This document shows positions 36,226 through 56,161 of a stretch of DNA of 64,000 nt, piece by piece (position 1 is the first letter of the stretch; each line of letters opens with the position of its first letter). Below the pieces are notes generated by a model, which saw only the letters and a program-made list of their open reading frames with translations, did no database searches and was not told the origin of the DNA. Source of the DNA: a virus. Taxonomy: Duplodnaviria; Heunggongvirae; Uroviricota; Caudoviricetes. The DNA lies in IMG/VR virus record IMGVR_UViG_3300028454_001165, positions 1-64,000 of that record; one strand, 5' to 3'. The translations under genes were made by a program, and so were the position numbers.

Positions 36226-36480
36226 TTACTGGCCAATTTTATAGTTGTAAAAGTGGGCTTTGCCCACCCAAAATGCAGAAAATAATTAGTTTAACAAACT
36301 AACTGTCCGGAAAAAGTGGGCAACTGGCCACTTTTTTTTCAAAGTTGGCCAGCTGAAAACCGTTGTCTTTATTGGGTTTGAGGCTTCTCTGGCCAATTGG
36401 CCAACTTTTTTTTAATATTTCCGCGAAACGAAAAAATTCGTTTTTATATAATATAGAGAAAAAACTGGGCAAGTTGGCCA
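36226..36480 (+). repeat. iteron cluster: six TGGCCA copies (one as the 14-bp palindrome TGGCCAATTGGCCA) plus GTGGGCtttGCCCAC and AAGTGG...CCACTT palindromes and an AT-rich core
   Basis: TGGCCA at 36230, 36325, 36346, 36390, 36398, 36475. AT-rich 36404-36460 containing AACGAAaaaaTTCGTT. No ORF with RBS. Confidence 0.6.
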
Positions 36481-36594
36481 GCGTGGATTTTGAGGCTGTT
36501 TTCACAAGAAAAAGCGCGGCGGAGAGTCCGGTCGCGTTGATTGATATTTTCGGAGATTGAGGGGGGGGGGATGAACGCTTTCGTCGGACTGCGA

Positions 36595-36619
36595 CGCGAA
36601 AAAAACATGGGTCTTAATG
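36595..36619 (+). promoter_or_regulatory. CGCG-N16-TAATGG motif (copy identical to 37224-37248)
   Basis: gcgaCGCGaaaaaaacatgggtctTAATGGagaacatccaaaattactga, 46 nt identical to the downstream cassette. Confidence 0.45.
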
Positions 36620-36663
36620 GAGAACATCCAAAATTACTGATTTTTCAAAAGGAGTTTAGAACT

Positions 36664-36912
36664 ATGGCAAAGATCAATGCGAAGGAAATCGGAATGGCGT
36701 GCCTGACCGGTGCGAAGAAGATCTGGAAGCCTTTAACGGGCGTTATGATCGCTGCGGGAGCGGTGATCGGAACGTACCTGCTGGGGAAAAAAGAACTCGA
36801 CGCGGAGGAGGCGGCGGAAAACGAGAACCTGCTCGCGGACGGAGCTGAAGAAGAAACGACTGACGAAGAAAGCAACGAGGAAGAATCCGAAGAGGAGGAC
36901 GACGCTGAATAA
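36664..36912 (+). CDS. small TM protein with poly-acidic tail (82 aa)
   Basis: AAAAGGAGTTTAGAACT RBS. TM GVMIAAGAVIGTYLL. Tail ...EEESEEEDDAE. The last codons and terminator are duplicated at 37435-37475. Confidence 0.5.
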   Translation: MAKINAKEIGMACLTGAKKIWKPLTGVMIAAGAVIGTYLLGKKELDAEEAAENENLLADGAEEETTDEESNEEESEEEDDAE

Positions 36913-36937
36913 GCGTCCCCTCTTTCTTTTTTTTTTT
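36895..36937 (+). terminator. terminator hairpin GACGC-tgaataa-GCGTC + T-run (duplicated at 37443-37479)
   Basis: Stop codon TAA sits in the loop. T10 run follows. Confidence 0.5.
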
Positions 36938-36959
36938 GTGTGAGGATTGATATTTTTTG

Positions 36960-37175
36960 TTACTTTGAACGATGTTCTCTTTCGGACTTTTTTCGGAGGA
37001 GTTTTACGGCCTTCGCGACGGTAAGCCCGATCGATACCGCTATTCCGGCGGTGATGATTTTTTCGTTTGTGTTCAATTGGTTATAGGCGGCGTTCATGCT
37101 TCCGTATCCCCGCTTCATTTCTTTGGTAATCTGGGCGGCGTTCAGCTTTTTGCTCACGTCGGTCTCTCCGGGCAT
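36960..37175 (-). CDS. putative - strand membrane protein (71 aa)
   Basis: TATAAT -10-like element 13 nt upstream on the - strand, but no SD. TM helix IITAGIAVSIGLTVAKAV. Uncertain. Confidence 0.25.
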   Translation of the reverse strand: MPGETDVSKKLNAAQITKEMKRGYGSMNAAYNQLNTNEKIITAGIAVSIGLTVAKAVKLLRKKSEREHRSK

Positions 37176-37235
37176 TGATATTTACATGATTATATCATAG
37201 ACACGGAATAAATGCAAGGACAGCGCGAAAAAAAC

Positions 37236-37460
37236 ATGGGTCTTAATGGAGAACATCCAAAATTACTGAATGAAGGAGAAATAGAGATAAAAAGCTTGAA
37301 AAGTATCGTGCTTGGGAGTATCGGAGGCTTGGTGGGCGGGTTTACCGTTCTGCTATGGCTCTGGAGCAGACCGGACACGCTGACGGATGAGCTGAATGAA
37401 ATTCGCTCTGACATCAAAGCTTTGGAGGAATCCAAAAAGACGGAGGACGACGCTGAATAA
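37236..37460 (+). CDS. small TM protein with acidic C-terminus (about 75 aa; start ambiguous)
   Basis: Shares 5' flank and 3' end (EDDAE* plus terminator) with the 36664 cassette. TM helix IVLGSIGGLVGGFTVLLWLW. No clean RBS-ATG; the start may be the ATG inside the promoter-like motif or a downstream TTG/GTG. Confidence 0.3.
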   Translation: MGLNGEHPKLLNEGEIEIKSLKSIVLGSIGGLVGGFTVLLWLWSRPDTLTDELNEIRSDIKALEESKKTEDDAE

Positions 37461-37645
37461 GCGTCCCCTCTTTCTTTTTGCGGCGGGTGGGATTGATATT
37501 TCCGGGAATCGGGGGGGGGACGCGCAGATCGCATGGACTGTAATGAGAGAAGAACGAATATGCGCGTTCTGTTTCTCTTGCGTTTGATCCGCAAAAAAAA
37601 AGAGCCCGCGTTTCGGCACAGGCCCTTTTGTCCGCTTGCGCGGTA

Positions 37646-37750
37646 TCACTTCCGGTTTTCCACGGAAGCTCTGGCATCCGCCAGCTTTTCCGCAGCGATC
37701 TGCAGAGCAGCGATGATGCCTTCGAGATTTACTCTCCGGCGAGCTTTCAT
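37646..37750 (-). CDS. 34-aa - strand peptide with strong RBS
   Basis: AAGGAGGG 7 nt upstream of ATG. Sequence MKARRRVNLEGIIAALQIAAEKLADARASVENRK. Confidence 0.3.
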   Translation of the reverse strand: MKARRRVNLEGIIAALQIAAEKLADARASVENRK

Positions 37751-38049
37751 TTTTCAGCCCTCCTTTACGGTAGAATCTCTTCTCCTTTTCTACGAGTATT
37801 ATACCAAATTTCGGCGGGTTTGTCAAGCGGATTGCGGATCGGACGCAAAAAAGAACCTATGATCGGACACAGGTTCTTTCCGGGTTTCCTTCGGATGCGG
37901 GTGGGCGAACAATCAACACTGATTGATATTCGTACCGCTGGTTTCTCCTTTCAGTTTCGGCTGGCAACGGTCTGCGCGCAAGATCACCGATCATCCCAAA
38001 CTGAACGTCCGGCTCCGCATCCAATGGAAGCCCTACGGCTCTTAACCGC

Positions 38050-38136
38050 TTACCTTCGGCTGATGTAATTCAGCACGGCAACTACAGTCTGAATGAGACT
38101 GAGCACCAACATGATGATACCAATCAATTCAGTCAT
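38050..38136 (-). CDS. 28-aa hydrophobic peptide, type I toxin-like
   Basis: Sequence MTELIGIIMLVLSLIQTVVAVLNYISRR. Canonical promoter TTGCAA(38190-38195)-N17-TATAAT(38167-38172) on the - strand. Paralog of the 38660 peptide. Confidence 0.45.
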   Translation of the reverse strand: MTELIGIIMLVLSLIQTVVAVLNYISRR

Positions 38137-38659
38137 GTACACCGCTTTCCGTGTGCGCGCGAGAGCATTATAGCACATTCTCGGCGTCTTTGCAACCGGC
38201 AGGTTGAACAAAGATCGTTCGGGATCTGTGCGAAAAATAAGGAGAGGCGCATAGCTAACATACCCTCTTTATTTTTGCCGAGGATCCGGGGAAGGTGGTT
38301 TTCGAAATGCCCCCCCCCTGTTTTATTGATATTTTCAGACGGTCGGACGCGGCGGAAACATTTTCTGTTATGAAGAGAGGAGACAGAACGGGGTTTTGGT
38401 TCCCGTTTGATTTTGTCTTTCTTTTCGTCATTGATATTTTCGATGACGAAGAAAAAGGAGATACGCGCCAGACGCTGCCAAACAGCTTTTCCGTATAAAT
38501 GAATCACTTCATGTTCGGAACGGTCGGCGGGGTCTGCCGTACTGACGAAGAGCGGTTTCTTTCGCCGCGATTTGCTGCGCGGGATGAATGAGGAGGAAGT
38601 AGTTCATCCCCTACTTGAAATTGCAATGCGTCTTTACGGCGGATCCCCCTTTTTCAGCC

Positions 38660-38767
38660 TTACCGCTTACGGATTTGCATCACGCAAGCGACAACGGTGG
38701 CTAATGCCGACACGACTTCGCATACGGTCTGAACAAAGTCAAACACAAGCTGGATGTCAAACGTCAT
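38660..38767 (-). CDS. 35-aa hydrophobic peptide, type I toxin-like
   Basis: Sequence MTFDIQLVFDFVQTVCEVVSALATVVACVMQIRKR. GAAAGAAAGGGG RBS. Extended -10 TGcTAAAAT upstream on the - strand. Same MT...QTV...I(R/S)(K/R)R pattern as the 38050 peptide. Confidence 0.45.
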   Translation of the reverse strand: MTFDIQLVFDFVQTVCEVVSALATVVACVMQIRKR

Positions 38768-38860
38768 GGCGCGCCCCTTTCTTTCTACATGCGGGCGCAC
38801 GGATATTTTAGCACAGGTCGTCATCACTCGCGTGCACAATTTTCAGAAAGGAGAAACAAA

Positions 38861-39199: not shown

Positions 39200-39765
39200 G
39201 CTTCCAGTTCAACCGGCACGCGGAGATCGAGGGCAAGCACGCTTTTCTCTCGGCGTCGAAGTATCATTGGATCCGGTACGATGAAGCGAAGATGGCCGAC
39301 GTATTCCGCAATTTCTTCGCGGCGGAGCAGGGAACGCGGATGCACGATTTCGCGTCCCATTGCATTCGGATGGGACAGAAGCTTCCGCGGACGAAGCAGA
39401 CGCTCAACATGTTCGTCAACGACGCGGTGGAGTTCGGGATGTCCTCGGAGGTGGTGCTGTATTACAGCCGCAACTGTTTCGGGACGACGGACGCGATCGG
39501 TTTCCGGAATGGGGTGCTCCGCATTCACGACTACAAGAGCGGTGTGATCCCGGCGCATTTCGAGCAGCTCTTCGTCTACGCGGCTCTGTTTTGTCTGGAA
39601 TACGACGTTGCGCCGGAGGATATTCAGATCGAGCTGCGGATCTATCAGTCGGGTGAGATTCAGAAATGCAGGCCGGAGCCGGAGGTGATCCGGGAGGTCA
39701 TGCGGAAAGCGGTGGATTTTGACATGCTGATCGAATCCATCAAAGAGGAAGAGCGGGCCAATTGA
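39196..39765 (+). CDS. putative PD-(D/E)xK-family nuclease (189 aa)
   Basis: ATGA coupling to the VRR-NUC gene. TDAIGF...LRIHDYKSG resembles a D...(D/E)xK core. Low certainty. Confidence 0.35.
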   Translation: MSFQFNRHAEIEGKHAFLSASKYHWIRYDEAKMADVFRNFFAAEQGTRMHDFASHCIRMGQKLPRTKQTLNMFVNDAVEFGMSSEVVLYYSRNCFGTTDAIGFRNGVLRIHDYKSGVIPAHFEQLFVYAALFCLEYDVAPEDIQIELRIYQSGEIQKCRPEPEVIREVMRKAVDFDMLIESIKEEERAN

Positions 39766-39848
39766 TATTTGAAATAGGGGGTGGGATCGCCGGATGTGAC
39801 CCCCTCTTCTTTTTCATTGATATTTGCAAAGAAAGGCAGATTACAGCC

Positions 39849-42668
39849 ATGGATACGAAAAACGACGCGATCTACATCGATGAGGAAACCGGCGAGGTCT
39901 TGGATGACATGGATATTCTCGAGCACTACGGGATGCCCCGGCGGTCCGGGAGGTACCCGTGGGGTTCCGGGGACAATCCTTACCAGCGGACGGGGGATTT
40001 CATTTCCCGCGTGAACAAGATGAAGGCCGACGGCATGTCGGAGGGGGAGATCGCCCGCGAGCTTGAGATTGTGAACTACCGCGGCGAACCGTCCCCATCC
40101 CGGCTCAGAACGCAGCTCTCCGTCGCCAAGAATTACCGCCGCTCGCTTCTTGTAGAGCAGGCGAAGGACATGAAGGCGAAGGGTCTCGGAGCTACGGAGA
40201 TCGGCGAGAAGATGGGGCTGAACGAGTCTACGGTCCGCTCCCTTCTCAATACGAAGGCCGAAGCCCGGATGCTCGCGGCGTCCAACACGGCGAAATACCT
40301 CAAAGAGGAGATCGACAAGAACGGCATGATCGACGTTGGTTCCAGCGTGGAGCGAAAGCTCGGCGTGACGCGGACGACGCTCGACAACGCGCTGATGATC
40401 CTCGAAATGGAGGGATATCCGACTTACGGAGGACGGGTCCCTCAGGTGACGAACAAGGGGCAGATGACGACGCTCAAGGTGGTCTGCCCGCCGGGCGCTG
40501 AGAAAAAAGATATTTACGATTATGCGAAGATCCACCAGCTCGGAGACAGGATCTCGTCCGACGGAGGCGAGACCTTCGATCCGGTCTGGGTCTATCCGAA
40601 GTCGCTGGATTCGAAGCGGGTGCAGATCCGTTACGCGGAAGAAGGCGGCAAGGACAAGGACGGTGTGGTTGAGATCCGGCCGGGTGTGGAAGACGTTTCC
40701 CTCGGCGGCTCCTCTTACGCGCAGGTCAGGGTTCTGGTGGACGGGACGCATTACATCAAGGGCATGGCGGTTTACGGGGATCCGGCCGACTTCCCGGAGG
40801 GGGTCGACATGATCTTCAACACGAACAAGCACGTCGGGACGCCGATGCTGTCGGATGATCCGAACGCGAAGTGCGTGCTCAAGCCCATCGATAAGGCGAA
40901 TCCGACGAACCCCTTCGGGTCGCTGATCAAGGACGGCATCGTCGATCCTGACGACCCTTCGAAGAAGGAGGGCGGACAGCGGTACTACTACGACGAGAAC
41001 GGCGAGAAGCAGCTCTCCGTCATCAACAAGCGGGCCGACGCCGGGGATTGGAACGAATGGAGCCACGATCTCCCCTCGCAGTTCCTTTCGAAGCAGAACA
41101 ACAAGCTCGTGAAGCAGCAGCTCGATCTTGCGAAGATCGACAAGCAGAGCGAATACGAGGAGATCTGCGCATTGACGAATCCGACGGTGAAGAAGCATCT
41201 CCTTCTGAATTTCGCGAACGACTGTGATTCGGCGGCGGTGCATCTCAAGGCGGCCGCCCTTCCGAGGCAGCGGTATCAGGTGATCCTTCCCCTGACGACG
41301 CTCGGGGACGACGAGGTCTATGCTCCGAACTACAAGCCTGGGGAGAAGGTCGCGCTGATCCGGTATCCGCACGGGGGGACGTTCGAGATCCCGATCCTGA
41401 AGGTGAACAATAAGAATGCGGAGGGGAGGCGGGTGATCGGGCCCAATCCGCCGGATGCGGTCGGCATCAACGCGAAGGTCGCGGAGCGGCTCTCCGGGGC
41501 GGATTTCGACGGGGACACGGTCATGGTGATCCCGCTCTCCGGCAAGGCGAATATCACCTCTACGCCGACGCTTCCGGGGCTCGAAGGCTTCGATCCGAAG
41601 GAGCAGTACGGCGGGAAACCGGCAGGGACCTTCAAGCAGATGACGAAGCCCGGCACGCAGATGGAGATGGGGAAGGTTTCAAATCTCATCACCGACATGA
41701 CGATCGGGGGGGCCGGTCCGGAAGAGCTGGCAAAGGCGGTTCGCCACTCCATGGTGGTCATCGACGCATACAAGCACAAGCTGGATTACAAGCAGTCCGA
41801 AATCGACAACGATATCCCCGCCCTCAAACGCAGATGGCAGGGGCATACGACGGAGGACGGGCGGTATTCCACGGGGGCCGCCACGATCATTTCGCAGGCG
41901 AAGGGGCAGGCGAGCGTTCCGAAATACCGGGGGGTCCAGAAGATCGATCCCGAGACGGGCAAGCTCTACTGGGACAGCCGGAAGACGCCCGAGACCTATG
42001 TGGACAAGAACGGTAAGACGCAGACGCGAATGGTCCGCACCACGAAAATGGCGGCCACGGACGACGCGATGAAGCTGGTTTCGGAAGGCAGGACGCAGGT
42101 CGAGCTGCTGTACGCGGATTACGCGAACACGATGAAGTCTCTGGCGAACGACGCGCGAAAAGAATACGTTTCCGCAGGAAGGATCGAGCGCAGTTCCGAA
42201 GCCGCGCAGAAATATGCGGCCGAAGTGGCAAATCTTGAAGCGCAGCTGAACGTCGCAAAGCTCAACGAGCCGCGCGAACGTCAGGCGCAGCTGAACGCCA
42301 ACGCGAACATCAAGCTCTGGCTGGAGAAGAATCCCGACGCGACGAACGCCGAGATCAAGAAGCAGTCTCAGCGGGAACTCTCGAACGAGCGCGCAAAGCT
42401 CGGCGCGAAGAGAAGTCCGGTGAAGATCAGCCCCGAACAATGGGAGGCGATTCAGGCCGGAGCGGTTTCGGAAAACGTGCTGACGAACATCCTCAAGTAC
42501 ACGGACATTGATGTCGTCCGCGGCTACGCGACGCCTCGCGCTTCCAAAGAGCTGAGCGCGGTGAAGCAGGCGAGGATCCACGCGCTGCAGAACTCCGGCT
42601 ACACGAATCAGGACATCGCAGACGCGCTCGGCGTTTCGGTTTCGACTGTGCTGAACTATCTTGACTGA
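39849..42668 (+). CDS. large multi-HTH protein (940 aa)
   Basis: AAAGAAAGGCAG RBS. Three HTH-like segments (GMSEGEIARELEI; GLGATEIGEKMGLNESTVRSLLN; C-terminal GYTNQDIADALGVSVSTVLNYLD). N-terminal HYGMPRRSGRYPWGSGDNPYQ resembles the N-termini of the 45556 and 50539 products. Confidence 0.6.
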   Translation: MDTKNDAIYIDEETGEVLDDMDILEHYGMPRRSGRYPWGSGDNPYQRTGDFISRVNKMKADGMSEGEIARELEIVNYRGEPSPSRLRTQLSVAKNYRRSLLVEQAKDMKAKGLGATEIGEKMGLNESTVRSLLNTKAEARMLAASNTAKYLKEEIDKNGMIDVGSSVERKLGVTRTTLDNALMILEMEGYPTYGGRVPQVTNKGQMTTLKVVCPPGAEKKDIYDYAKIHQLGDRISSDGGETFDPVWVYPKSLDSKRVQIRYAEEGGKDKDGVVEIRPGVEDVSLGGSSYAQVRVLVDGTHYIKGMAVYGDPADFPEGVDMIFNTNKHVGTPMLSDDPNAKCVLKPIDKANPTNPFGSLIKDGIVDPDDPSKKEGGQRYYYDENGEKQLSVINKRADAGDWNEWSHDLPSQFLSKQNNKLVKQQLDLAKIDKQSEYEEICALTNPTVKKHLLLNFANDCDSAAVHLKAAALPRQRYQVILPLTTLGDDEVYAPNYKPGEKVALIRYPHGGTFEIPILKVNNKNAEGRRVIGPNPPDAVGINAKVAERLSGADFDGDTVMVIPLSGKANITSTPTLPGLEGFDPKEQYGGKPAGTFKQMTKPGTQMEMGKVSNLITDMTIGGAGPEELAKAVRHSMVVIDAYKHKLDYKQSEIDNDIPALKRRWQGHTTEDGRYSTGAATIISQAKGQASVPKYRGVQKIDPETGKLYWDSRKTPETYVDKNGKTQTRMVRTTKMAATDDAMKLVSEGRTQVELLYADYANTMKSLANDARKEYVSAGRIERSSEAAQKYAAEVANLEAQLNVAKLNEPRERQAQLNANANIKLWLEKNPDATNAEIKKQSQRELSNERAKLGAKRSPVKISPEQWEAIQAGAVSENVLTNILKYTDIDVVRGYATPRASKELSAVKQARIHALQNSGYTNQDIADALGVSVSTVLNYLD

Positions 42669-42682
42669 AAGGAGAAAACGTC

Positions 42683-43213
42683 ATGAAGAATTCTGAGAAC
42701 ACAGTTGACGAGATCCTTGCCGAAAAGGCGGAAGAGCGCGCGCAGACCGAGCCGATCGCGGAGTCGGCGGAAGAAAGCGGCGCGATTGCCGACGAGAGTT
42801 TCGGAAACGAAAACAGCGGCGAAAAAGCAGAGGAAAATCTGAGCGCAGAATCTGCCGAAAATTTGGACGACGAGCGGAAAGAAAGCGCCGATCAAGCTGT
42901 TCACGCCGACAAAGGCGAGTATTTTGGCGGAAATTATGAGGCGATGCTGACGACGGTTGACAATCCTTTTGATCCGTTCGACAAATTTGACGATTGGTTT
43001 CGCTTTGACGAGCAGCACGGCTACCACAGCTGCGCTTATCTTGGCAGAATCACGGAAATCAGCGACGAGATGAGCGACGAAGAAGCGCAGAAAGAGATCG
43101 AGCGAGCGATCGACGAGATTCTCAAATACGACGTCTTCAACGTATACCGGAAGGTGCGGCGGCCTGTGAGAGTTTCGGAAGATTCCGCGGAAACGCTGGA
43201 GATTTCTGACTGA
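42683..43213 (+). CDS. hypothetical protein with poly-acidic N-terminal half (176 aa)
   Basis: GGAGAAAACGTC RBS. Conserved-looking C-terminal DPFDKFDDWFRFDEQHGYHS. Confidence 0.5.
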   Translation: MKNSENTVDEILAEKAEERAQTEPIAESAEESGAIADESFGNENSGEKAEENLSAESAENLDDERKESADQAVHADKGEYFGGNYEAMLTTVDNPFDPFDKFDDWFRFDEQHGYHSCAYLGRITEISDEMSDEEAQKEIERAIDEILKYDVFNVYRKVRRPVRVSEDSAETLEISD

Positions 43214-43397
43214 AATCGAGTCGTCGCCCTGCTGGAACTCGCAAGAGTTTCGTGAATTTGAAACCCCTCCTCTGAAATCTGCTGTCAGACACCCGGGGGA
43301 GGGGTCGAAAAATCTGCACCCCCTCTGAAATCGCGTTGGCCTTTGAAAAATCTCCGGGGGAGTTATTTGAGAAAAGTCGTTCGTCTCTGATATTCAG

Positions 43398-43525
43398 CGG
43401 TGCTTATACAGGCTCACAAGGAGATGCTCTGGCAGGCACATATGCCAGCTTCCTTTTCCTGTTTCTCCTTTCGGGAAGTGATATGAAGCAGTTTATTCTT
43501 GTCTTTGTGAGCCTGTATAAGCACC
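43398..43525 (+). repeat. perfect 21-bp inverted repeat (GGTGCTTATACAGGCTCACAA / TTGTGAGCCTGTATAAGCACC) separated by 86 nt
   Basis: Arms at 43398-43418 and 43505-43525. Sits in the non-coding 43215-43597 region with CTGAAATC / GAAAAATCT direct repeats. Confidence 0.6.
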
Positions 43526-43597
43526 GTAAAACTGATAGAAAGATATTTGAATTGGACATGAAAATCTATGAACTTTGATGAAAGGAAGGAGAAAAGT

Positions 43598-43948
43598 ATG
43601 CCGAAAAGTAAACAAAAGCCGGTGGAAACCCCTTCTGAAGAGTTCGTTCCTGAGCTTGATCCCGAGGCCAGAGAGGCACAGATGATCAATCTCGCCGTCA
43701 GACAGGCAGAAAAACAACTCAGGGAGGGAACAGCACCGGCACAAATCGTTACACATTATCTCAAACTGGCGACGGTCAGAGAGCGGAAGGAATTGGAGAT
43801 CCTTGAGCAGCAGGCAAAGCTGATAGCCGCAAAGACGGAAGCACTCGAGTCTGCGAAACGGATCGAGGAGCTTTACGCTCAGGCGATCGATGCAATGAAA
43901 CTATATAACGGACAGGGGATTGATGAGGACGATGAGGACGTATACTGA
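43598..43948 (+). CDS. hypothetical protein (116 aa); position compatible with a small terminase or other DNA-packaging accessory
   Basis: GGAAGGAGAAAAGT RBS. No recognisable motif. First gene after the inverted-repeat region. Confidence 0.45.
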   Translation: MPKSKQKPVETPSEEFVPELDPEAREAQMINLAVRQAEKQLREGTAPAQIVTHYLKLATVRERKELEILEQQAKLIAAKTEALESAKRIEELYAQAIDAMKLYNGQGIDEDDEDVY

Positions 43949-44348
43949 GCTAATCAAGCTGCCGACATTCGGGGAACGGTTTGAATATTTGAAGCTGGAC
44001 GGGGCCGTTGCTCAGGAGACTTTCGGCGGAGCCAGATGGCTGAATCAGGTATTATATCAGACGCCGGAATGGAAAGTGGCAAGAAGGAAAGCGATCGTCC
44101 GGGACATGGGCAACGATCTTGGCTGTGAGGGATGGCCGATATTGGGGCGGGTTTATGTGCATCATATGAACCCAATCACAAAGGAAGATATTCTTAAACG
44201 GTCGGAGGCGCTGTTTGATCCGGAGAATCTGATCTGCTGTTCAGACATGACGCACAAGGCCATTACATACGGAGACTTCAATCTTCTTCCGAAAGAATTC
44301 GAAGAAAGAAAAGCGGGGGACACCTGTCCATGGAAAAAATTGAAATAG
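43923..44348 (+). CDS. HNH endonuclease (141 aa)
   Basis: YVHHMNPITKEDI...ENLICCSDMTHKAIT fits the HNH motif (HH..N...NL...H). Confidence 0.6.
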   Translation: MRTMRTYTELIKLPTFGERFEYLKLDGAVAQETFGGARWLNQVLYQTPEWKVARRKAIVRDMGNDLGCEGWPILGRVYVHHMNPITKEDILKRSEALFDPENLICCSDMTHKAITYGDFNLLPKEFEERKAGDTCPWKKLK

Positions 44349-44605: not shown

Positions 44606-44971
44606 ATGGATGAGAATATCCTTACCTCTGTTAAGTTGGCTCTTGGTATCGCTGAGGATTATACGTACTTTGATCAGCAGCTGATCCTTTACATCAACAC
44701 CGCTCTGGCTGTGCTGACGCAGACCGGAGTGGGTGAAGCGGGATTCACGATTACCGGCAGCGCCGAAAAATGGTCCGATTTTCTCGGTGAGAAGATGGCT
44801 GCCCTTGAATACAGCAAGAGCTATGTGATCATGCGCGTCCGACTGATGTTTGACCCTCCGCAGAGTTCGGCGGCAATCGAAGCTTTGAAGGCAATGATCG
44901 CCGAGTATGAATGGCGGGGATATGTGGAGAGCGATGAGGGTGTGGCCGAGGCATTAGTCGGAGGAAACTGA
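44606..44971 (+). CDS. gp6-like head-tail connector / DNA-packaging protein family (121 aa)
   Basis: VKLALGIAEDYTYFDQQLILYINTALAVLTQTGVGE resembles the Phage_connect_1 signature (L...LRID.D.DD.LI..LI.AA..YI...TG). Confidence 0.4.
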   Translation: MDENILTSVKLALGIAEDYTYFDQQLILYINTALAVLTQTGVGEAGFTITGSAEKWSDFLGEKMAALEYSKSYVIMRVRLMFDPPQSSAAIEALKAMIAEYEWRGYVESDEGVAEALVGGN

Positions 44972-45555: not shown

Positions 45556-46596
45556 ATGGATAAACAATTCGATACTTTGGAGCACCATGGCATCCTCGGG
45601 ATGAAGTGGGGCGTGAGAAGATACCAGAATGAGGACGGATCTCTTACTGAAGCCGGTCGAAAGCGGTATGGTGTCGAGGAAAGTTCTTCAGAATCGGAGA
45701 CGAGGTCTTCACAGGACACCTCGCAGGGGCAGACTTGGAGTCCGGCATCGACTGTGAAGTCAGTCTCCGAGATGTCTGACGAAGAACTGCGGAACGCTCT
45801 GAATCGGATGAATATGGAACGACAGTACAATGAGATGACACGTTCCAGAGAAAATCAAAATACGACTCAGAATAATGCAACGGTTATCGAACGGCCGAAA
45901 ACGACCGGAGAGATGACGAATGCTGAATTGCAGAGTTATATTAACAGACTCGAGTTGGAAAAGCGGTATGCTACTTTGACAGCACCTCCTCCCAAACAGG
46001 TCACAAAAGGCGAACAATTTGTCAAGGATGTCCTGAAGCCTGCGTTCAACGAAGTTGCTAAGCTCTATGTTGTCAATACCTTGAAGAACTTTGTCGGGCT
46101 GAACAACAGCGACAATGGAGGAAAGGACAAGGGTAACGATAATTCCGATAGCGGAAAGAAGAAAAAAACAGGTAATCAGGATAGTCAGTATCAATCCATC
46201 AAGAAGGAACTTGACTCTCTCAAGGCCATGATTTCCTCTTCGAACCAGACCAAGAAAGAGGCAACTGGACAGAACGCGTCCAAATCTGGAGACAGATCCG
46301 ACAATAAGACAGAGTCAGCGGCCAGATCAGAGACCAGAAATGAGAATCGTTCGGAAAGCAGGACCGCAAGCAATTCCTCTCATCGCGCCGATATTCTTCG
46401 CGCAGCCAGAGAGAATGTCAGAACGGCAAAGGAACAGGTAAACCAGAAGTCGAGTAACGATCGGTGGAGCAGTATTCTTAATTCATTAAATGCGCAGAAC
46501 CAGTTTTTGGATAATTCAATACAGAGTCAAAGGGCTCAGATGCAACGTCAAAGAGCTCAGAATTACTTAGACAGATACATTAGTAATCTTCCATAA
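45556..46596 (+). CDS. low-complexity S/T/N/Q/R-rich protein with N-terminal HHGILGMKWGVRRYQN motif (346 aa)
   Basis: GAAAGGAGGG RBS. N-terminal 40 aa nearly identical to the 50539 product. Internal repeated ELxxxxNRxxxExxY blocks. Confidence 0.6.
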   Translation: MDKQFDTLEHHGILGMKWGVRRYQNEDGSLTEAGRKRYGVEESSSESETRSSQDTSQGQTWSPASTVKSVSEMSDEELRNALNRMNMERQYNEMTRSRENQNTTQNNATVIERPKTTGEMTNAELQSYINRLELEKRYATLTAPPPKQVTKGEQFVKDVLKPAFNEVAKLYVVNTLKNFVGLNNSDNGGKDKGNDNSDSGKKKKTGNQDSQYQSIKKELDSLKAMISSSNQTKKEATGQNASKSGDRSDNKTESAARSETRNENRSESRTASNSSHRADILRAARENVRTAKEQVNQKSSNDRWSSILNSLNAQNQFLDNSIQSQRAQMQRQRAQNYLDRYISNLP

Positions 46597-46671: not shown

Positions 46672-47538
46672 TCAATGCACGCATTTCTGGCATGGGGTTT
46701 TGCCTCTGCGCAAAGCTTCTGATAAGCTTACCGGGTATGAGTTGACACCGCCGCAATCCGGATCGATGTGGTATCTGACTCCGGATGGTGTTATATAGAC
46801 GGTTTCTTCGTCCGGTTCTTCTTCAAGTGTATATATAGTCAGATCTTCCTGCCCTGTGGAGAGTGAGCGGTAATTGGACATATTACCGACAGATTCTCCA
46901 ATACTTTCCATGGCGTAGTAATAGTCATCATAAGTAAAAACTTGCTTGAAGATCAGCCAATCAGCGAGCGGAGCAAGCGGATATTCCTTTTGCGGAGCTT
47001 GAATTGTAGCAAGGGAGACCGTTACAATATCGGCTCGCAGGAAGTTATCAAGATCAACGTTCCAGCGGATCAGGTTTAGTTGCCGGGCAAGATCGTAGGG
47101 GTTGCTCCATGTGAAATCTCCACGGGAGTCATCATAGCCGAGGGCACGAAGGGCAAACGTTAGATACATGGCGGAGGATACAGTGCCGGTACCGAACTCG
47201 GTATCCGAGATGCCGTTGGCAAGGCCCTCGTTATATGCGAATCCTATATAGTCGTCTGCCCAGTTCGGAACGTCAGTGAATGGATGCCAGCGATGGACAG
47301 CCAGAGCTTCTTCTTCATAACCGATCAGACGGATCAGCATGACGATTGCTTCTACTCTGGTTGCGGGTCTCTCCAAATCAAAGTTGTTATCGGAGACTCC
47401 TTTGAATAAACCGAGTGATTTCAAAGCCTGTGCCTGTGATTCTTCCACACCTATGTATCTTGCATTTACTGCTGTCGGCAGGAAACAAAAGAGCATCGCG
47501 ATCGCAAGCAAGAGGGAGATAATTTGTGAAGATTTCAT
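46672..47538 (-). CDS. - strand moron: secreted SLH-domain protein with C-terminal Cys4 (288 aa)
   Basis: Signal peptide (LLLAIAMLFCFLPTAVNA). Two SLH-like repeats (FKGVSDNNFDLERPATRVEAIVMLIRLIGY; GFAYNEGLANGISDTEFGTGT..RALGY). C-terminal CGG...CQKC. Confidence 0.55.
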   Translation of the reverse strand: MKSSQIISLLLAIAMLFCFLPTAVNARYIGVEESQAQALKSLGLFKGVSDNNFDLERPATRVEAIVMLIRLIGYEEEALAVHRWHPFTDVPNWADDYIGFAYNEGLANGISDTEFGTGTVSSAMYLTFALRALGYDDSRGDFTWSNPYDLARQLNLIRWNVDLDNFLRADIVTVSLATIQAPQKEYPLAPLADWLIFKQVFTYDDYYYAMESIGESVGNMSNYRSLSTGQEDLTIYTLEEEPDEETVYITPSGVRYHIDPDCGGVNSYPVSLSEALRRGKTPCQKCVH

Positions 47539-47689: not shown

Positions 47690-49438
47690 ATGGCGCTCTC
47701 GAATACGGCTGTGCCGAGGTACTACGGCGTGTTTCGGGACGCCGTGATTCGCGGGGAGATCCCGGTATGCAGAGAGATTTCCCTTCAGATGAACCGGATC
47801 GACTATCTGATCCGAAGCCCGAACTACTACTATGATCCCGCTCCGGTTGAAGGGTGGATCCGATTCTGCGAGAATGAGCTGACCCTGACGGACGGGTCCG
47901 ATCTCGCTCTTCTGCCGTCGTTCAAGCTTTGGGGCGAGGATCTGCTCGGGTGGTACTACTTCGAGGAACGGAGCGTTTATGAGCCCGGAACAAACGGACG
48001 CGGAGGACGGTATGTCCGCAAGAGGATCAAGAAACGACTGTGCCACAAGCAGTATCTGATCGTCGGGCGCGGCGCGGCAAAGTCCGTTTATGATTCCTCC
48101 GTACAGGCGTTTTTCCTGAATGCGGACTCCTCTACAACCCAGCAGATCACGACGGCTCCGACTATGAAGCAGGCGGACGAGGTAATGAGCCCGATCCGAA
48201 CGGCTATCACACGATCCCGCGGCCCTCTGTTCCGGTTTCTGACGGAAGGATCCATCCAGAACACGACCGGGTCGAAGGCAAAGAGGGTTAAACTGGCTCC
48301 GACAAAGAAGGGGATCGAGAACTTTCTGACGGGATCATTGCTTGAAATCCGTCCGATGAATACGGACAAGCTGCAAGGACTTCGATGCAAGGTGGCCACG
48401 ATCGACGAATGGCTGTCCGGGGATGTAAATGAGGACGTTGTGGGGCCGATCGAGCAGGGGGCTTCCAAGCTGGACGATTATGTGATCATCGCCACAAGTT
48501 CTGAGGGAACCGTTCGGAACGGAACCGGCGACTCCATCAAAATGGAGTTGATAAAGATCCTCAAAGGCGAATACATCAATCCGCACACTTCGATCTGGTG
48601 GTACAAACTGGACAGCTTGGAGGAAGTCGGCAAGCCGAACATGTGGCTGAAATGCAATCCGAACATCGGCAAGACTGTCTCTTATGAGACATATCAGCTT
48701 GACGTGGAACGGGCCGAGAAGGTTCCGTCCGCCAAAAACGATATTCTGGCAAAGCGGTTCGGGCTGGCTATGGAAGGCTACACATACTACTTCACCTATG
48801 AGGAAACCAAAGTGCATAGGCCGCGGGAGTTCTGGTCGATGCCGTGTTCTCTTGGAGCGGACTTGTCTTTGGGGGACGACTTCTGCGCTTTTACGTTCCT
48901 GTTTCCTCTGCCAGACGGATGCTTCGGCGTAAAGACGCGGGCTTACATCACATCGCTGACGATGAGCAAATTACAGGCGTCGCTCCGACAGAAGTACGAC
49001 GAATTCATGGCGGAAGGAAGTCTAATCGTCATGGAGGGAACGGTTCTCGATATGATCGACGTCTACGACGATCTGGACCGGCATATCGCGGAGAAAGAAT
49101 ACGACGTGCGGTGTTTCGGCTACGACCCGTATAACGCGCGGGAATTCGTGGAGCGGTGGACAACGGAAAACGGACCGTTCGGCGTGGAGAAGGTCATACA
49201 GGGCGCGAAGACGGAGAGCGTTCCGCTCGGCGAGCTGAAGAAGCTGGCGGGGGAGAGGATGCTGATCTTCGACGAGCAGATGATGACCTTTGCGATGGGG
49301 AACTGCATTGCGATCGAGGACACGAACGGAAACCGCAAGCTGATGAAGAAGCGGTACGACCAGAAGATCGACTCGGTCGCGGCCATGATGGACGCTTACG
49401 TGGCATACAAGGCCAACCGGGACGCGTTCGAGGGATAA
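47690..49438 (+). CDS. terminase large subunit (582 aa)
   Basis: Walker A LIVGRGAAKS. Walker B-like ATIDEW. C-terminal nuclease motif CSLGADLSLGDDFCAFTFLF. Confidence 0.85.
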   Translation: MALSNTAVPRYYGVFRDAVIRGEIPVCREISLQMNRIDYLIRSPNYYYDPAPVEGWIRFCENELTLTDGSDLALLPSFKLWGEDLLGWYYFEERSVYEPGTNGRGGRYVRKRIKKRLCHKQYLIVGRGAAKSVYDSSVQAFFLNADSSTTQQITTAPTMKQADEVMSPIRTAITRSRGPLFRFLTEGSIQNTTGSKAKRVKLAPTKKGIENFLTGSLLEIRPMNTDKLQGLRCKVATIDEWLSGDVNEDVVGPIEQGASKLDDYVIIATSSEGTVRNGTGDSIKMELIKILKGEYINPHTSIWWYKLDSLEEVGKPNMWLKCNPNIGKTVSYETYQLDVERAEKVPSAKNDILAKRFGLAMEGYTYYFTYEETKVHRPREFWSMPCSLGADLSLGDDFCAFTFLFPLPDGCFGVKTRAYITSLTMSKLQASLRQKYDEFMAEGSLIVMEGTVLDMIDVYDDLDRHIAEKEYDVRCFGYDPYNAREFVERWTTENGPFGVEKVIQGAKTESVPLGELKKLAGERMLIFDEQMMTFAMGNCIAIEDTNGNRKLMKKRYDQKIDSVAAMMDAYVAYKANRDAFEG

Positions 49439-50538: not shown

Positions 50539-51039
50539 ATGGAGCAAAATGTTTCAAACAATGCGAACGAATCTCTTCAGCATCACGGCATCCTCGGGAT
50601 GAAATGGGGCATTCGGCGATACCAGAATCCCGATGGGACTCTTACGGAAGCCGGGCGGAAAAGGCTGGATCAGAAAGACACGAAGTGGGCGCACAAACGC
50701 GAGGAGAAGATCTACAATCAGACTTACTCAAAGTCGCGCCGTGAGGTGAACAAGTTCGTCAAGGAACTCAACCGGCAGATAAGCCCGACGAATGCGAACG
50801 GACGGCTCTCGGCGACCTACGTCAATGCATACAACCAGAAGCTGGCCGAGATCATGAACAAGAACGTGAAGGAGATCCACGCCCCGTCCGGCAAAGTGGT
50901 CAAGTGGGTGGCAAAACGCGGAGAGGTCGGCGTTCACATGGCTCTGGCCGACGCAGGGTATGATCTGAGCCAGCTCAAACGCGGCGTGTACGGTTCCGGG
51001 CGGATCGCTTACCGGAAAACTTCGGTTGATGTCGGCTGA
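50539..51039 (+). CDS. protein with N-terminal HHGILGMKWGIRRYQN motif (166 aa)
   Basis: GAGAGGAGACG RBS. N-terminus paralogous to the 45556 product. Confidence 0.55.
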   Translation: MEQNVSNNANESLQHHGILGMKWGIRRYQNPDGTLTEAGRKRLDQKDTKWAHKREEKIYNQTYSKSRREVNKFVKELNRQISPTNANGRLSATYVNAYNQKLAEIMNKNVKEIHAPSGKVVKWVAKRGEVGVHMALADAGYDLSQLKRGVYGSGRIAYRKTSVDVG

Positions 51040-51059: not shown

Positions 51060-53405
51060 ATGCAATATACTTTTACCGACAGGCTGAAACATGCCTGGAA
51101 CGTATTTAAGAGCCGCGATCCGACTCAGTACGCAAGGTCTTATGTCGGCGGATTCAGCGAGTACAATCCCGATTTCAACCGGCGGTACTACCGGAATTCC
51201 GGCGACCGGTCCATTGTGACGGCCATCAAAAACCGGATCGCCGTCGACGCCGCGCAGGTGGATATTCAGCATGTGAAGCTGGACGACAACGACCGCTATC
51301 TCGAGACGCTGGACTCCGGCCTGAACCGGTGTCTATCCGTAGAAGCGAACATTGACCAGACGGGCAGAGCGTTCCGTCTGGATATTTTTTTCTCGCTTCT
51401 GGACGAGGGGGTCATCGCGCTTGTTCCGATCGACACGACATTCGACCCGGAGGTGACCGGCACGTATCAGATCAACTCCATGCGGGTCGGACGGATCACG
51501 CAATGGCATCCGAAGCACGTGCATATCAGCGTTTACAACGAAGATACCGGGCGGCGGGAAGAAATGGTTGTTCCGAAGAAAGTCGTGGCAATCGTGGAGA
51601 ATCCGTTTTACGCGGTGATGAACGAGCACAATTCCACCTTTCAGCGGCTGATCCATAAGCTCGCGCTTTTGGACGCGGTGGATGAGCAGTCTTCCTCCGG
51701 CAAGCTGGATCTTATCATACAGCTTCCCTATGTGGTCAAGACGCCGCAGAGAAAGGCGCTTGCGCAGGAGAGGCGGGAGGAGATCGAGCAGCAGTTATCC
51801 GGTTCCAAGTACGGTATTGCATGGACGGACGGTACGGAGAAGATCCAGCAGCTGAACAGGCCGATCGAGAACAATCTTCTCAGTCAGATCCAGTATCTGA
51901 CGGACCTTGCTTATTCCCAGCTCGGTATCACCGCGGATATCCTGAACGGAACGGCGGACGAGAAGACGATGCTGAACTACAACAACCGGATCATCGAGCC
52001 CCTTGTGGCGGCGGTCGCGGACAGCATCAAGCGGACTTTCCTGACAAAGACTGCCATCACGCAGCATCAATCCATCGAGTATTACCGCGATCCGTTCGCT
52101 CTGGTACCGGTGGAGAAGATCGCCGAGATCGCGGACAAATTCGGACGGAACGAGATCACGACGTCCAACGAAATCCGTCAGGCAATCGGCATGAAGCCGT
52201 CGACCGATCCGAACGCAGATATTCTCCGGAACAAGAACCTCTATGACACAACCGGTCAGGCTCCGGGGACAAATCCCGCAGGCGGGGAAGAAGAGGCCGA
52301 GGAAGAGGACGACGGGCCGATGACGGAGGAGGATTACCTTCGGGCGGTATCCGATCTCGACGATATGGACGAGCAGCTCGACAATCTCGAAGCCTCTTTG
52401 CGGCACTTTGACGATCCGCAGGAGGCGAAAGAGTATCGGAGATGGTACTACGAGAACGTCGAGAAGGAAAACCGGAAGCTCGGCTACGGCAATGCCTCGA
52501 CCAAGGGGCTGAACGAGGAAGGCCGGGCCTATGCGAAGTACATCCGGGAGCTTTTCGGAAACGAGCGCAAGGCCAAGGTTGCCGACTCGAAGGCCAGACA
52601 GGACGCGGGGATCGAATCCAGCAAATCGAGCACGAACGAGGGGATCGAGAAGAGCAAGACCGCGCGGGATACGCTTGTCGGCAACATCAATGCCTCTCGG
52701 GACAGCCGGATCGAATCCGAACGGACGAAGATGAACGCCGGGATCGAAAAGAGCCAGTCCGAACGGGACAGCCGCATCGCTTCTGTCAATGAGGAACGGG
52801 ATAAGAATATCGAGTCTGAGCGCACGCGCACAAAATCTGAAATCGAATCGCACAAGAATTCGATGCAGATGAAGATCGACACGCTGAAAAACTATCTTTC
52901 CGGGCTGAGCAAGGAAGACAAGGCGGCGGTCAAGGAGCGCGTACAGCAGGAAATCTCCGATCTCAGAGAAGACAACAAGCAGAAGCGGACAGAGCTTCAG
53001 GAGGCCTTCAAAGCGACAAGCGCGGAACTGCGCACCGAAGCCAAGACGGAAAACGATGCTGCGAGACAGGGGCACAAGGACACCTCTTCCTCCCTGCGCG
53101 AAGAGTTCAAGACGACAAGCGGCAATCTCCGCACGCAGTCGAAGAACAGCACGACGGCTATCAAGGAGGCGCATCAGTCCAAAGCGGCTTCCCTCAGAGA
53201 GCAGCACAAGCAGACAAGCGCCGGTCTGAGAGAAGAGCACAAGGCAAATACCGCCAAGGCCAAGCAGGAATATGAGGATGCTTACGCCGCAGAGCTTGAA
53301 TACATCAAATCTCTCCCGGAGTATCAAGCCGCGACGAAATCGAAGTCAAGCGGAAGCAAAGCTAAGTCTACTACCGTCGTCTATAAAGGCAAGAAGAATC
53401 TATAA
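51060..53405 (+). CDS. putative portal protein with about 360-aa repetitive C-terminal extension (781 aa)
   Basis: Size and position immediately upstream of the protease-capsid gene. Globular N-terminal 420 aa. C-terminal half made of degenerate IES(E/S)RT(K/R) and LREEHK(x)TS repeats. Confidence 0.55.
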   Translation: MQYTFTDRLKHAWNVFKSRDPTQYARSYVGGFSEYNPDFNRRYYRNSGDRSIVTAIKNRIAVDAAQVDIQHVKLDDNDRYLETLDSGLNRCLSVEANIDQTGRAFRLDIFFSLLDEGVIALVPIDTTFDPEVTGTYQINSMRVGRITQWHPKHVHISVYNEDTGRREEMVVPKKVVAIVENPFYAVMNEHNSTFQRLIHKLALLDAVDEQSSSGKLDLIIQLPYVVKTPQRKALAQERREEIEQQLSGSKYGIAWTDGTEKIQQLNRPIENNLLSQIQYLTDLAYSQLGITADILNGTADEKTMLNYNNRIIEPLVAAVADSIKRTFLTKTAITQHQSIEYYRDPFALVPVEKIAEIADKFGRNEITTSNEIRQAIGMKPSTDPNADILRNKNLYDTTGQAPGTNPAGGEEEAEEEDDGPMTEEDYLRAVSDLDDMDEQLDNLEASLRHFDDPQEAKEYRRWYYENVEKENRKLGYGNASTKGLNEEGRAYAKYIRELFGNERKAKVADSKARQDAGIESSKSSTNEGIEKSKTARDTLVGNINASRDSRIESERTKMNAGIEKSQSERDSRIASVNEERDKNIESERTRTKSEIESHKNSMQMKIDTLKNYLSGLSKEDKAAVKERVQQEISDLREDNKQKRTELQEAFKATSAELRTEAKTENDAARQGHKDTSSSLREEFKTTSGNLRTQSKNSTTAIKEAHQSKAASLREQHKQTSAGLREEHKANTAKAKQEYEDAYAAELEYIKSLPEYQAATKSKSSGSKAKSTTVVYKGKKNL

Positions 53406-56147: not shown

Positions 56148-56161
56148 GGAGGAAAATCACA

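Follow-up and report, generated by a model that had tools for sequence, protein, structure and literature searches.

The closest described relatives of the locus analysed here are phages with cohesive genome ends. Gordonia phage Secretariat carries the 3' overhang CGCCGCTCT (PMC10586112), and 3' overhangs have also been described for Lactococcus phage 1706 (GCCCTGTCT) and the P092 group (CGCCCCAGTC) (PMC4110766); in these phages the 3' polarity has been reported from experiments. The supercluster that joins Lactococcus 1706, Faecalibacterium Oengus and the AU-BI-DJ actinophages has as its signature gene an RNA polymerase-like polymerase with DxDGD (bioRxiv 10.1101/842583). Here we analysed a stretch of 64,000 nucleotides from a Caudoviricetes virus (IMG/VR record IMGVR_UViG_3300028454_001165, positions 1 to 64,000; the window, in what follows), which carries a prophage of this same supercluster. 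Positions 43214-43597 are a true intergenic gap of 384 bp between open reading frames (ORFs) 42683-43213 and 43598-43948, and they probably hold two separate, adjacent functional elements, a cohesive-end (cos) site on the left and a structured leader RNA on the right.

Judged by its homology to mapped genome ends, the interval 43294-43369 is almost certainly the cos site, with a predicted right end at 43331 and a predicted left end that begins at 43341. Its parts, and the element just upstream, are as follows.

43264-43303, plus strand: upstream hairpin-forming C-run/G-run (CCCCTCC ... GGAGGGG) with the first CCTCTGAAATC copy
43294-43331, plus strand: left half of cos, the right end of the virion genome, GGGGGAGGGGTCGAAAAATCTGCACCCCCTCTGAAAT
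43332-43340, plus strand: predicted cohesive end of 9 nt, 3'-protruding, CGCGTTGGC
43341-43369, plus strand: right half of cos, the left end of the virion genome, CTTTGAAAAATCTCCGGGGGAGTTATTTG

The gap DNA gave no similarity match against 50,697 phage records, and the homology of cos became visible only once the record ends were joined by hand. The joined ends of Gordonia Secretariat, Arthrobacter Dynamite, Streptomyces GirlPower and Lactococcus 1706 then aligned base for base with 43294-43369. In Secretariat the joined sequence reads ...GGGGGGAGGGGGTCCGCATGCCGTACCCCCCCTCTGCAT and CGCCGCTCT, followed across the junction by CCTCAAAAATTCTCCGGGGGGATATTTGG; its counterpart in the window is ...GGGGGAGGGGTCGAAAAATCTGCACCCCCTCTGAAAT and CGCGTTGGC, followed by CTTTGAAAAATCTCCGGGGGAGTTATTTGAG. 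To the left of the predicted cut the window has the family's G-run, TC, A-tract, CA, C-run and a few bases ending in AT, and to the right, at 43341-43369, it has the block CYTnnAAAAnnYCYCCGGrGGG and then a T-rich stretch, within which the right-side recognition blocks would be the A-tract, CCGGGGG and ATTTG. The cohesive end is likewise of the type found in these phages, GC-rich, 9-10 nt long and starting with CGC (CGCGTTGGC in the window, compared with CGCCGCTCT, CGCCGGCCT, CGCCCGCCT and (C)GCCCTGTCT). In the same four records the genes are arranged alike, in the order polymerase, phrog_4303, genome ends, phrog_4259, HNH endonuclease and, further on, the large terminase subunit (TerL), with extra genes past the end in some of them (six in one case), and their ends fall in the gap that matches that of the window. 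The Faecalibacterium prophage FP_oengus has the same cos site. At the level of sequence, every feature of the 3'-overhang cos family of 1706 and AU-BI-DJ is present, and we regard the site as an ordinary member of this known type, although no description of a cos consensus shared across the supercluster was found in the literature.

Independent support came from the ends of metagenome contigs, since dozens of independent relatives have contigs that start or end exactly at the matching bases. Among the IMG/VR loci found with the phrog_4259 protein, 11 of 18 have a contig end 60-400 nt upstream of that gene; among those found with the polymerase protein, at least 14 of 27 have one 150-850 nt past the polymerase gene, and at least seven of the latter contigs are 54-63 kb long. 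Eleven IMG/VR contigs stop at ...(C/A)AT, just before CGC, and six begin exactly 13 nt before CCGG, as do the left ends of four GenBank records. Closer relatives behave in the same way: contigs whose phrog_4259 protein is 66-87% identical to that of the window start at the homologous base, and in the ENA/Logan collections eight contigs begin at the homologous left-end base and two more begin 1 nt earlier. A search with a 17-nt motif from the left half matched at least 120 IMG/VR contigs. Among the matches listed, 32 of 121 begin at base 1 of the left end, while of the 68 that read through cos, 52 carry the G-run ... C-run block upstream and 58 have a predicted overhang beginning with CGC. The left-half block is conserved in contigs that read through the site. 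Nine nucleotides are absent from both kinds of contig end, from which we infer that 3' overhangs were removed during end-repair of the libraries. Headful (pac) packaging would give circularly permuted, terminally redundant DNA with no unique ends; the contigs and records of the relatives, in contrast, end at one exact base on each side.

On this basis, the large terminase (47690-49438), probably aided by the adjacent HNH endonuclease (43920-44348), would make staggered nicks during packaging, leaving the right end at 43331, the left end at 43341 and 9-nt 3' cohesive ends of CGCGTTGGC. The flanking blocks (G-run, A-tract and C-run on the left; A-tract, CCGGGGG and ATTTG on the right) would be the conserved recognition sequences. 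The role given to the HNH enzyme, which probably assists TerL in cleaving cos, is drawn by analogy with HK97, whose HNH protein gp74 stimulates cos cleavage by TerL (PMC9410871). Like the window, HK97 is a cos phage whose packaging module has an HNH endonuclease near the genome end; the two cos sites, in contrast, have no sequence similarity. The sites of 1706/P092 and of DJ-AU-BI share with the window the flanking blocks, the position among the genes and the GC-rich 9-10-nt overhang starting with (C)GC. The site in the window differs from them in lying inside an integrated prophage, where the ends are therefore joined, in having its own overhang, CGCGTTGGC, and in carrying an additional upstream C-run and CTCTGAAATC half-copy.

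In phage λ the overhangs are 5' and of 12 nt, R and IHF sites are present, and an HNH endonuclease is absent. As in its cosQ-cosN-cosB arrangement, the window has a partly symmetric cut site and, between this site and the first packaging gene, a structured region. The overhang predicted here by homology is, by contrast, 3' and of 9 nt, the downstream repeat behaves as an RNA helix and not as protein-binding repeats, and the locus has neither the 12-nt 5' overhang nor the gpNu1-binding R elements of a λ-type cos.

Several points weigh against the cos assignment as we give it. Cutting of this prophage at 43331/43341 is a prediction from homology. The overhang length may be off by 1 nt, as the nine nucleotides given for 1706 start later by one base and the overhang in the P092 group is 10 nt long. 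Finally, the searches made did not identify a small terminase. The product of phrog_4259, the gene that follows cos, may be this protein. It has no Pfam match above the curated cut-offs and its PHROG family has no assigned function, and its AlphaFold2 model is a plain pair of long helices (predicted local distance difference test score, pLDDT, 79) for which Foldseek returned no match in the PDB with E <2.9.

The same region had drawn attention, in an original prediction made from the sequence alone, for its direct repeats and G/C clamp stems. All the direct repeats are present, at slightly corrected coordinates, as are both stems.

43266 and 43319: direct repeat CCyCCTCTGAAATC
43210 and 43325: direct repeat CTGAAATCG
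43293 and 43354: direct repeat CCGGGGGAG
43307 and 43345: direct repeat GAAAAATCT
43264-70 with 43297-43303: stem CCCCTCC with GGAGGGG
43319-23 with 43356-60: stem CCCCC with GGGGG

The runs had been paired wrongly, if one goes by the pair that relatives conserve, which is the G-run 43294-43303 with the C-run 43319-43325 to the left of the cut, together with CCGGGGG to the right. By sequence comparison, the conserved half-sites of cos account for the G/C clamps and for the CTGAAATC and GAAAAATCT repeats, together with a partial duplicate nearby. The duplicate would be 43264-43303, which looks like a partial copy of the left half of cos: its C-run (43264-70), with the accompanying CTCTGAAATC (43264-43280), is specific to the lineage of the window and is not conserved in relatives L083, L003, L016, L070 and others, where the G-run is. 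In the 64-kb window exact CTCTGAAATC and TYGAAAAATCT are confined to this locus. We had also considered a dispersed promoter motif, and rejected it as exact CTCTGAAATC and GAAAAATCT occur at this locus only.

To the right of cos, 43398-43526 very probably forms a structured plus-strand RNA in the 5' leader of the late operon (packaging, structural and lysis genes), as judged from comparative sequence evidence. We refer to its helices as P1, P2 and P3.

43398-43422, plus strand: 5' arm of P1, the long closing helix
43429-43448, plus strand: P2, inner hairpin CTGGCA-GGCACATA-TGCCAG
43455-43478, plus strand: P3, inner hairpin UUUCCUG / CGGGAAG, whose loop shows the anti-Shine-Dalgarno-like UUUCUCCUUU
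43465-43472, plus strand: CTCCTTTC in the P3 loop
43502-43526, plus strand: 3' arm of P1
43581-43600, plus strand: Shine-Dalgarno region (AAAGGAAGGAGAAA) and ATG of the first late gene

P1 corresponds to an inverted repeat with arms of 25 nt (43398-43422 and 43502-43526), 79 nt apart, which make 24 Watson-Crick pairs and one G.T (96% complementary). It includes a perfect core of 22 nt (43398-43419 and 43505-43526), the two core halves being 85 nt apart. The repeat had been put forward as a perfect one of 21 bp with an 86-nt loop, which was essentially right and needed only these small changes of coordinates. An inverted-repeat scan of the window (seed 12, at least 17 nt, arms no more than 200 nt apart) found it to be the sole long inverted repeat besides one short palindrome, and its score of 22 compares with a maximum of 10.5 among 353 control segments of 300 nt, none of which reached 12.

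Of 30 relatives, 18 have a long inverted repeat in this place, between cos and the first late gene, with arms of 19-36 nt, loops of 20-125 nt and sequences that are unrelated between lineages. These relatives include FP_oengus, 1706 (with a weaker, gapped repeat) and Arthrobacter phage Dynamite, in which a 36-bp version containing ACUCCUUUCAAGAG stands upstream of the homologous gene (z = -9.9). In 10 distinct homologues, 94.4% of the cells of P1 are paired and eight pairs have changed on both sides; 0 of 500 shuffles were as good, and controls in which the arms were slid gave 27-48% paired. P2 is kept in L003 and L055 with altered stem bases. For P3, which falls out of register in the MAFFT alignment and whose pairs were therefore counted by script, 54 of 56 positions are paired in eight sequences and 116 of 183 pairwise comparisons are compensated, with five G.U against no A.C. 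The P3 stems can differ completely between relatives (UUUCCUG/CGGGAAG, GUCUCUU/AAGAGAC, ACUGCCU/AGGCAGU and GAUCGC/GCGAUC), and the loop core UCUCCUUU is invariant in the eight sequences. This loop (UCUCCUUUC / UUUCUCCUUUC) is identical to the anti-Shine-Dalgarno end of 16S rRNA, and its CUCCUU has a mean predicted unpaired probability of 0.78.

The strand of this structure is indicated by the positions that are not Watson-Crick pairs. In 27 repeats there are 64 G.T, 15 A.C and 14 others, and such an excess of G.T over A.C argues for pairing in the plus strand and not for a duplex protein site. The predicted fold is also more stable on the plus strand (-84.2 kcal/mol, versus -70.3 for the minus strand). 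In the 64 kb, CTCCTTTC has 2 copies on the plus strand versus 19 on the minus strand, the latter matching real ribosome-binding sites. In the 27 polymerase loci, all seven plus-strand copies lie after cos, and six of the seven are enclosed by an inverted repeat with a score of 9.5-23.

Looking back at the original prediction, its option of a cos- or pac-proximal terminase site suits the left part of the gap, given the homology to mapped genome ends and the pile-up of contig ends in relatives. Its options of a late-gene regulatory region or a structured RNA suit the right part, on the evidence of the G.U asymmetry, the covariation of P1 and P3, and the leader position. The analysis of covariation across relatives that it had proposed showed that P1 and P3 keep their pairing by compensatory changes, and in place of the distant termini and unconserved repeats that it had named as arguing against it, the ends of the relatives map here and the repeats are conserved.

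The position of P1 bears on how the RNA could be made. In six relatives (L011, L014, L016, L018, L019 and L068) just 24-27 nt separate the left end from the start of P1, too few for a promoter, so that the full RNA could be made only from cos-joined DNA. This DNA would be a circle, a concatemer or the prophage, with transcription entering from the side of the polymerase gene, and a terminator scan found no terminator between 43213 and P1. A sigma-70 promoter between cos and P1 was considered and rejected: the one weak match (43367-43394) is not conserved in L003 and L055, and the relatives have no room for it. Nor is the hairpin itself an intrinsic terminator of the usual form, as P1 is followed by GTAAAACTG, with no U-run. 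The weak 6-bp P2 followed by CTTCCTTTTC fits a loose terminator scan by itself, and this tail is not kept beside P2 in relatives.

RNase III cuts near-perfect helices of 20 bp or more. P1, a near-perfect helix of 25 bp in the window and of 19-36 bp in relatives, is of that size (about 20 bp or more), and the RNA is probably an RNase III-processed leader that controls the downstream genes. How it would do so is a more tentative matter, and the specific combination of RNase III with an anti-Shine-Dalgarno mechanism, as set out here, is rather doubtful. RNase III would cut P1 and so part the late mRNA from the upstream RNA. Left uncleaved, the hairpin would base-pair with the first late gene at its ribosome-binding site and keep translation of that gene low, whereas cleavage would detach or release the anti-Shine-Dalgarno hairpin, the net effect being processing-dependent control of late-operon expression. 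The ATG of ORF 43598-43948 is indeed preceded by the ribosome-binding site AAAGGAAGGAGAAA, to which the P3 loop is complementary over 9 nt (43462-43470 with 43586-43594), and many lineages show 8-11 nt of such complementarity. Leaders that sequester a Shine-Dalgarno sequence in cis, as in riboswitch expression platforms or the c4 RNA of P1, have an upstream segment that is complementary to the ribosome-binding site downstream and covaries with it. Here the match of the loop is slightly closer to the ribosome-binding site of its own lineage than to those of other lineages (permutation p = 0.008-0.016, about 0.01-0.02).

Other observations speak against the leader RNA or against its proposed mode of action. 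The difference between own and foreign sites is weak (mean run 7.6 versus 7.1 nt), and the loop stays CUCCUUUC even in Dynamite, L014 and L060-63, which have no more than GGAGG as the downstream ribosome-binding site. Cleavage of P1 by RNase III is a suggestion from helix length, and we found no conserved sigma-70 promoter or transcription start site. A clear hairpin was not seen in L006, L010, L058, L064, L069 and GirlPower. G.T wobbles are also tolerated in single-stranded DNA hairpins, which leaves room for a role of the plus strand as DNA.

The constancy of the loop in front of GGAGG-only sites fits a common trans factor better than simple cis pairing. The trans partner could be a protein or, alternatively, the common GAAAGGAGAAA ribosome-binding sites of the phage. 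GAAAGGAGAAA is the exact complement of the P3 loop and the commonest ribosome-binding-site context of this phage, with six exact and 15 one-mismatch copies (21 in all) on the plus strand, mostly in the early/middle region at 5-43 kb; with sites so abundant, the loop could act in trans. It is conceivable, if unlikely, that P1-P2-P3 constitutes an undescribed family of phage leader RNAs that is specific to the supercluster with YonO/RdRP-like polymerases, and in which the invariant loop UCUCCUUUC(AAGAG), mimicking the 3' end of 16S rRNA, is a dedicated signal and not a simple mask of the ribosome-binding site. Such a signal could be a small RNA, released by RNase III, that would titrate the abundant GAAAGGAGAAA sites. 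Alternatively, it could be the element recognised by the phage polymerase, or by a factor associated with it, in launching or protecting the single late transcript. Late expression would then be coupled to circularisation of the genome, as the RNA can arise only from cos-joined DNA.

The inverted repeat itself could be read in other ways. In phage λ, cosB (the R sites) lies between the cut site and the first gene, and the repeat in the window occupies the equivalent place, 58-186 bp inside the left end. It might then be a double-stranded DNA site of the cosB type, with the arms as half-sites for an oligomeric small terminase on bent DNA; the arm centres, about 104 bp apart, would be separated by roughly 10 helical turns, and the arms differ between lineages, as expected from co-evolving terminase specificity. 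A duplex site, however, has no cause to favour G.T over A.C, yet these stand at 64:15, and near-perfect arms of 19-36 bp far exceed the length of a protein half-site. Neither does a duplex-DNA site explain why P3 covaries completely around an invariant loop, and in L007, L060-63 and L015 the hairpin follows the first gene, at least 200-300 nt from the cos motif. We consider this explanation improbable: the strand-asymmetric G.U wobbles and the covariation of P1 and P3 favour RNA, and the long repeat is poorly accounted for as the terminase recognition site that had been suggested for it. About as improbable is a hairpin acting as single-stranded or extruded DNA, either as a promoter for the YonO-like polymerase, comparable to the hairpin promoters used by the N4 virion polymerase, or as a priming signal like the single-strand origin (sso) of rolling-circle plasmids, with CTCCTTTC(AAGAG) as the recognised loop motif. 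The promoters of phage N4 have stems of 5-7 bp and 3-nt loops and act on the template strand; the stems here are of 19-36 bp and the loops of 20-125 nt, and the wobbles point to the plus strand, the one that does not serve as template for the late genes. The sigma-region-4-like helix-turn-helix (HTH) domains of the polymerase suggest, furthermore, that it recognises duplex DNA. What makes this explanation attractive is that the polymerase gene lies directly upstream, that the late operon needs a promoter in or near the gap, for which one site per genome suffices, and that the loop motif CTCCTTTCAAGAG is conserved from an Arthrobacter phage to phages of gut Firmicutes, in parallel with the polymerase; wobbles of the G.T type would be tolerated by a DNA hairpin too. 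The promoter of YonO is itself not known (PMC5467207).

Read on the minus strand, CTCCTTTC is a perfect Shine-Dalgarno sequence (GAAAGGAG), and it could be the ribosome-binding site of a small minus-strand gene, of which the inverted repeat would be the terminator or operator. An annotated minus-strand ORF of Dynamite (gp2, 372-569) starts 8 nt from the motif, and the window has a minus-strand ORF of 15 codons near it. Against such a gene, 12 of 18 sequences have no start codon 3-13 nt past the minus-strand GGAG, the ORFs that do have a start are unrelated and of 1-41 codons, the whole loop is just 20 nt in L060-63, and both the wobbles and the fold energies point to the plus strand. In one more sequence, L019, a start codon follows one of the two motif copies. 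The small minus-strand ORF downstream of GAAAGGAG was rejected since it is not conserved, and we regard this reading as very improbable. We give hardly any credence to repeats with no function of their own, whether from chance low complexity, a miniature inverted-repeat transposable element (MITE) with terminal inverted repeats, or the terminator of the upstream operon. Slippage can produce G/C runs, and one terminator-like hairpin (43429-43448 and then CTTCCTTTTC) does lie inside the loop; but the position is conserved across phyla with compensatory evolution, P1 has no U-run after it, there is no second copy of the repeat arms in the window, and the lone IMG/VR match to an arm 21-mer is in unrelated coding sequence. 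That exact 21-mer was found once, in L021, within a glycine-rich coding sequence, and the match was taken as chance. An exact 39-mer gave no match in a collection with one genome per species. A structured plus-strand leader RNA thus remains the reading that we prefer for 43398-43526.

Among described RNAs, P1 resembles the T7 R sites, the λ N leader and sib, and the helix that leader and trailer form around 16S rRNA, all of which are near-perfect helices of at least 20 bp formed by distant segments of a polycistronic transcript and located between functional units. The helix in the window differs from these RNase III processing helices in closing a domain with a conserved anti-Shine-Dalgarno loop, which those lack, and the sequences are unrelated. 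The c4 RNA of phages P1 and P7 and the CI RNA of P4 are structured RNAs that precede their target within one transcript and expose loops able to pair with its ribosome-binding region, a layout that the leader RNA of the window shares. The c4 and CI RNAs have specific targets, are processed by RNase P or otherwise, and serve in immunity; the window RNA, in contrast, has a generic anti-Shine-Dalgarno sequence and precedes a late operon, and there is no sequence or structural homology between them. SPbeta offers a further analogy in the unannotated non-coding RNA at the start of its YonO-transcribed late operon (PMC5467207): a YonO-type polymerase gene and a small gene are followed there by a non-coding leader and one long late operon. 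The order is the same as in the window, whereas the genome layout differs, so the likeness is one of analogy only; in the 1.7-kb yonN-yonK gap of SPbeta we found no equivalent long hairpin with the motif in its loop, only a pairing of 16 bp that involves CTCCTT itself.

Rfam 15 gave no match at the gathering score in the whole window, and its E-value mode on 43150-43700 returned only chance matches to microRNAs and long non-coding RNAs (E >=0.49). A scan detected no tRNA or tmRNA. As a general type, the hairpin fits with structured leaders that serve as substrates of RNase III or carry anti-Shine-Dalgarno sequences, and the motif itself appears to be undescribed, its architecture, invariant loop and fixed position being neither in Rfam nor found by the literature searches made.

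With the cos assignment, the virion ends of an uncultured prophage of gut or rumen type are predicted to the base, and one cos architecture is seen to be common to phages of Actinobacteria and Firmicutes. The assignment also provides a simple sequence rule for orienting and completing metagenomic genomes of this large group, which should end just before CGC and begin 13 nt ahead of CCGG. Of the two elements the RNA is the more interesting, with its strong covariation, its fixed place at the head of the late operon and its exposed anti-Shine-Dalgarno loop, and it adjoins a little-understood single-subunit RNA polymerase. It is a candidate for a new Rfam family and, if it controls late expression, it would provide a new handle on the timing of structural genes in these phages.

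Some further observations concern the hairpins. Between cos and the first gene, L019, L068, L060 and L063 have two tandem long hairpins, the first sometimes without CTCCTTTC. In Dynamite (L050, NC_070946; 372-569 and 502-698), the minus-strand gp2 overlaps the left arm of the 36-bp repeat and has the conserved CTCCTTTC loop motif as its apparent ribosome-binding site, and this ORF call may be an artefact of the motif. A weaker second copy of the architecture is found in the window at 37882-38033, where an inverted repeat of 19 nt (84% complementary, 114-nt loop) encloses the only other plus-strand TTTCTCCTTTCAG of the window (37942-37954) and folds better on the plus strand (z -3.5 versus -1.7). 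No equivalent was found within 4 kb upstream of the polymerase gene in relatives, and this copy may be lineage-specific or coincidental.

The genes that surround the gap are the following.

39762-42668, plus strand: YonO/RdRP-like single-subunit RNA polymerase homologue, 968 aa, phrog_4291 (E=0)
42683-43213, plus strand: small conserved gene, the final gene ahead of cos, phrog_4303 (E=1e-34)
43598-43948, plus strand: first gene past cos, phrog_4259, 116 aa
43920-44348, plus strand: HNH endonuclease gene, phrog_4321 (E=2e-53)
44606-44971: connector protein gene
47690-49438, plus strand: large terminase subunit gene, with Pfam TerL_nuclease and TerL_ATPase and phrog_9 (E=1e-101)
51060-53405: portal gene

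The window starts inside a host gene: the ORF at 1-1506 (60% G+C) encodes an aminoacyl-tRNA synthetase of class II, which matches tRNA-synt_2 at E=1e-97 and has an OB anticodon-binding domain. This start indicates that the phage is an integrated prophage with its left junction at about 1.5-2.4 kb. Beyond 1-1506 nearly the whole window is prophage, oriented on the plus strand. Homologues of the polymerase were found in 250 phage records, from Arthrobacter, Gordonia, Streptomyces and Curtobacterium phages to the Lactococcus 1706 group and Faecalibacterium FP_oengus, and in the listed records of SEA-PHAGES actinophages and of the 1706 group the polymerase gene ends 300-500 bp short of the right end, with no other large gene after it. 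The C-terminal HTH of the 968-aa protein has matches to Pfam HTH and Sigma70_r4 (sigma-region-4-like) models. As a separate observation, the conserved blocks that flank cos could double as a promoter of this polymerase. The phrog_4303 gene has the position of Secretariat gp84, Dynamite gp99, GirlPower gp79 and 1706 orf76, and homologues of the HNH gene stand at the same position in Secretariat (gp8), Dynamite (gp4), GirlPower (gp2) and 1706 (orf5).

Elsewhere in the window, 36300-38800 has little coding sequence and many repeats, and could be a regulatory or origin region between gene modules. It includes a perfect 46-nt direct repeat (36595-36640 and 37224-37269), two identical terminator-like hairpins of 38 nt (36894-36931 and 37442-37479), and three occurrences of GATTGATATTT. 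Within the otherwise plus-strand packaging module, just before the large terminase, a minus-strand gene with an S-layer-homology domain (46672-47538) looks like an inserted accessory gene. Finally, ORFs of the structural module contain diverged internal repeats, at 45581-45662 and 50579-50660 (79% identity) and at 56276-56653 and 56982-57359 (68% identity), which suggest paralogous domains or duplicated genes, for example 56144-56857 and 56880-57695.

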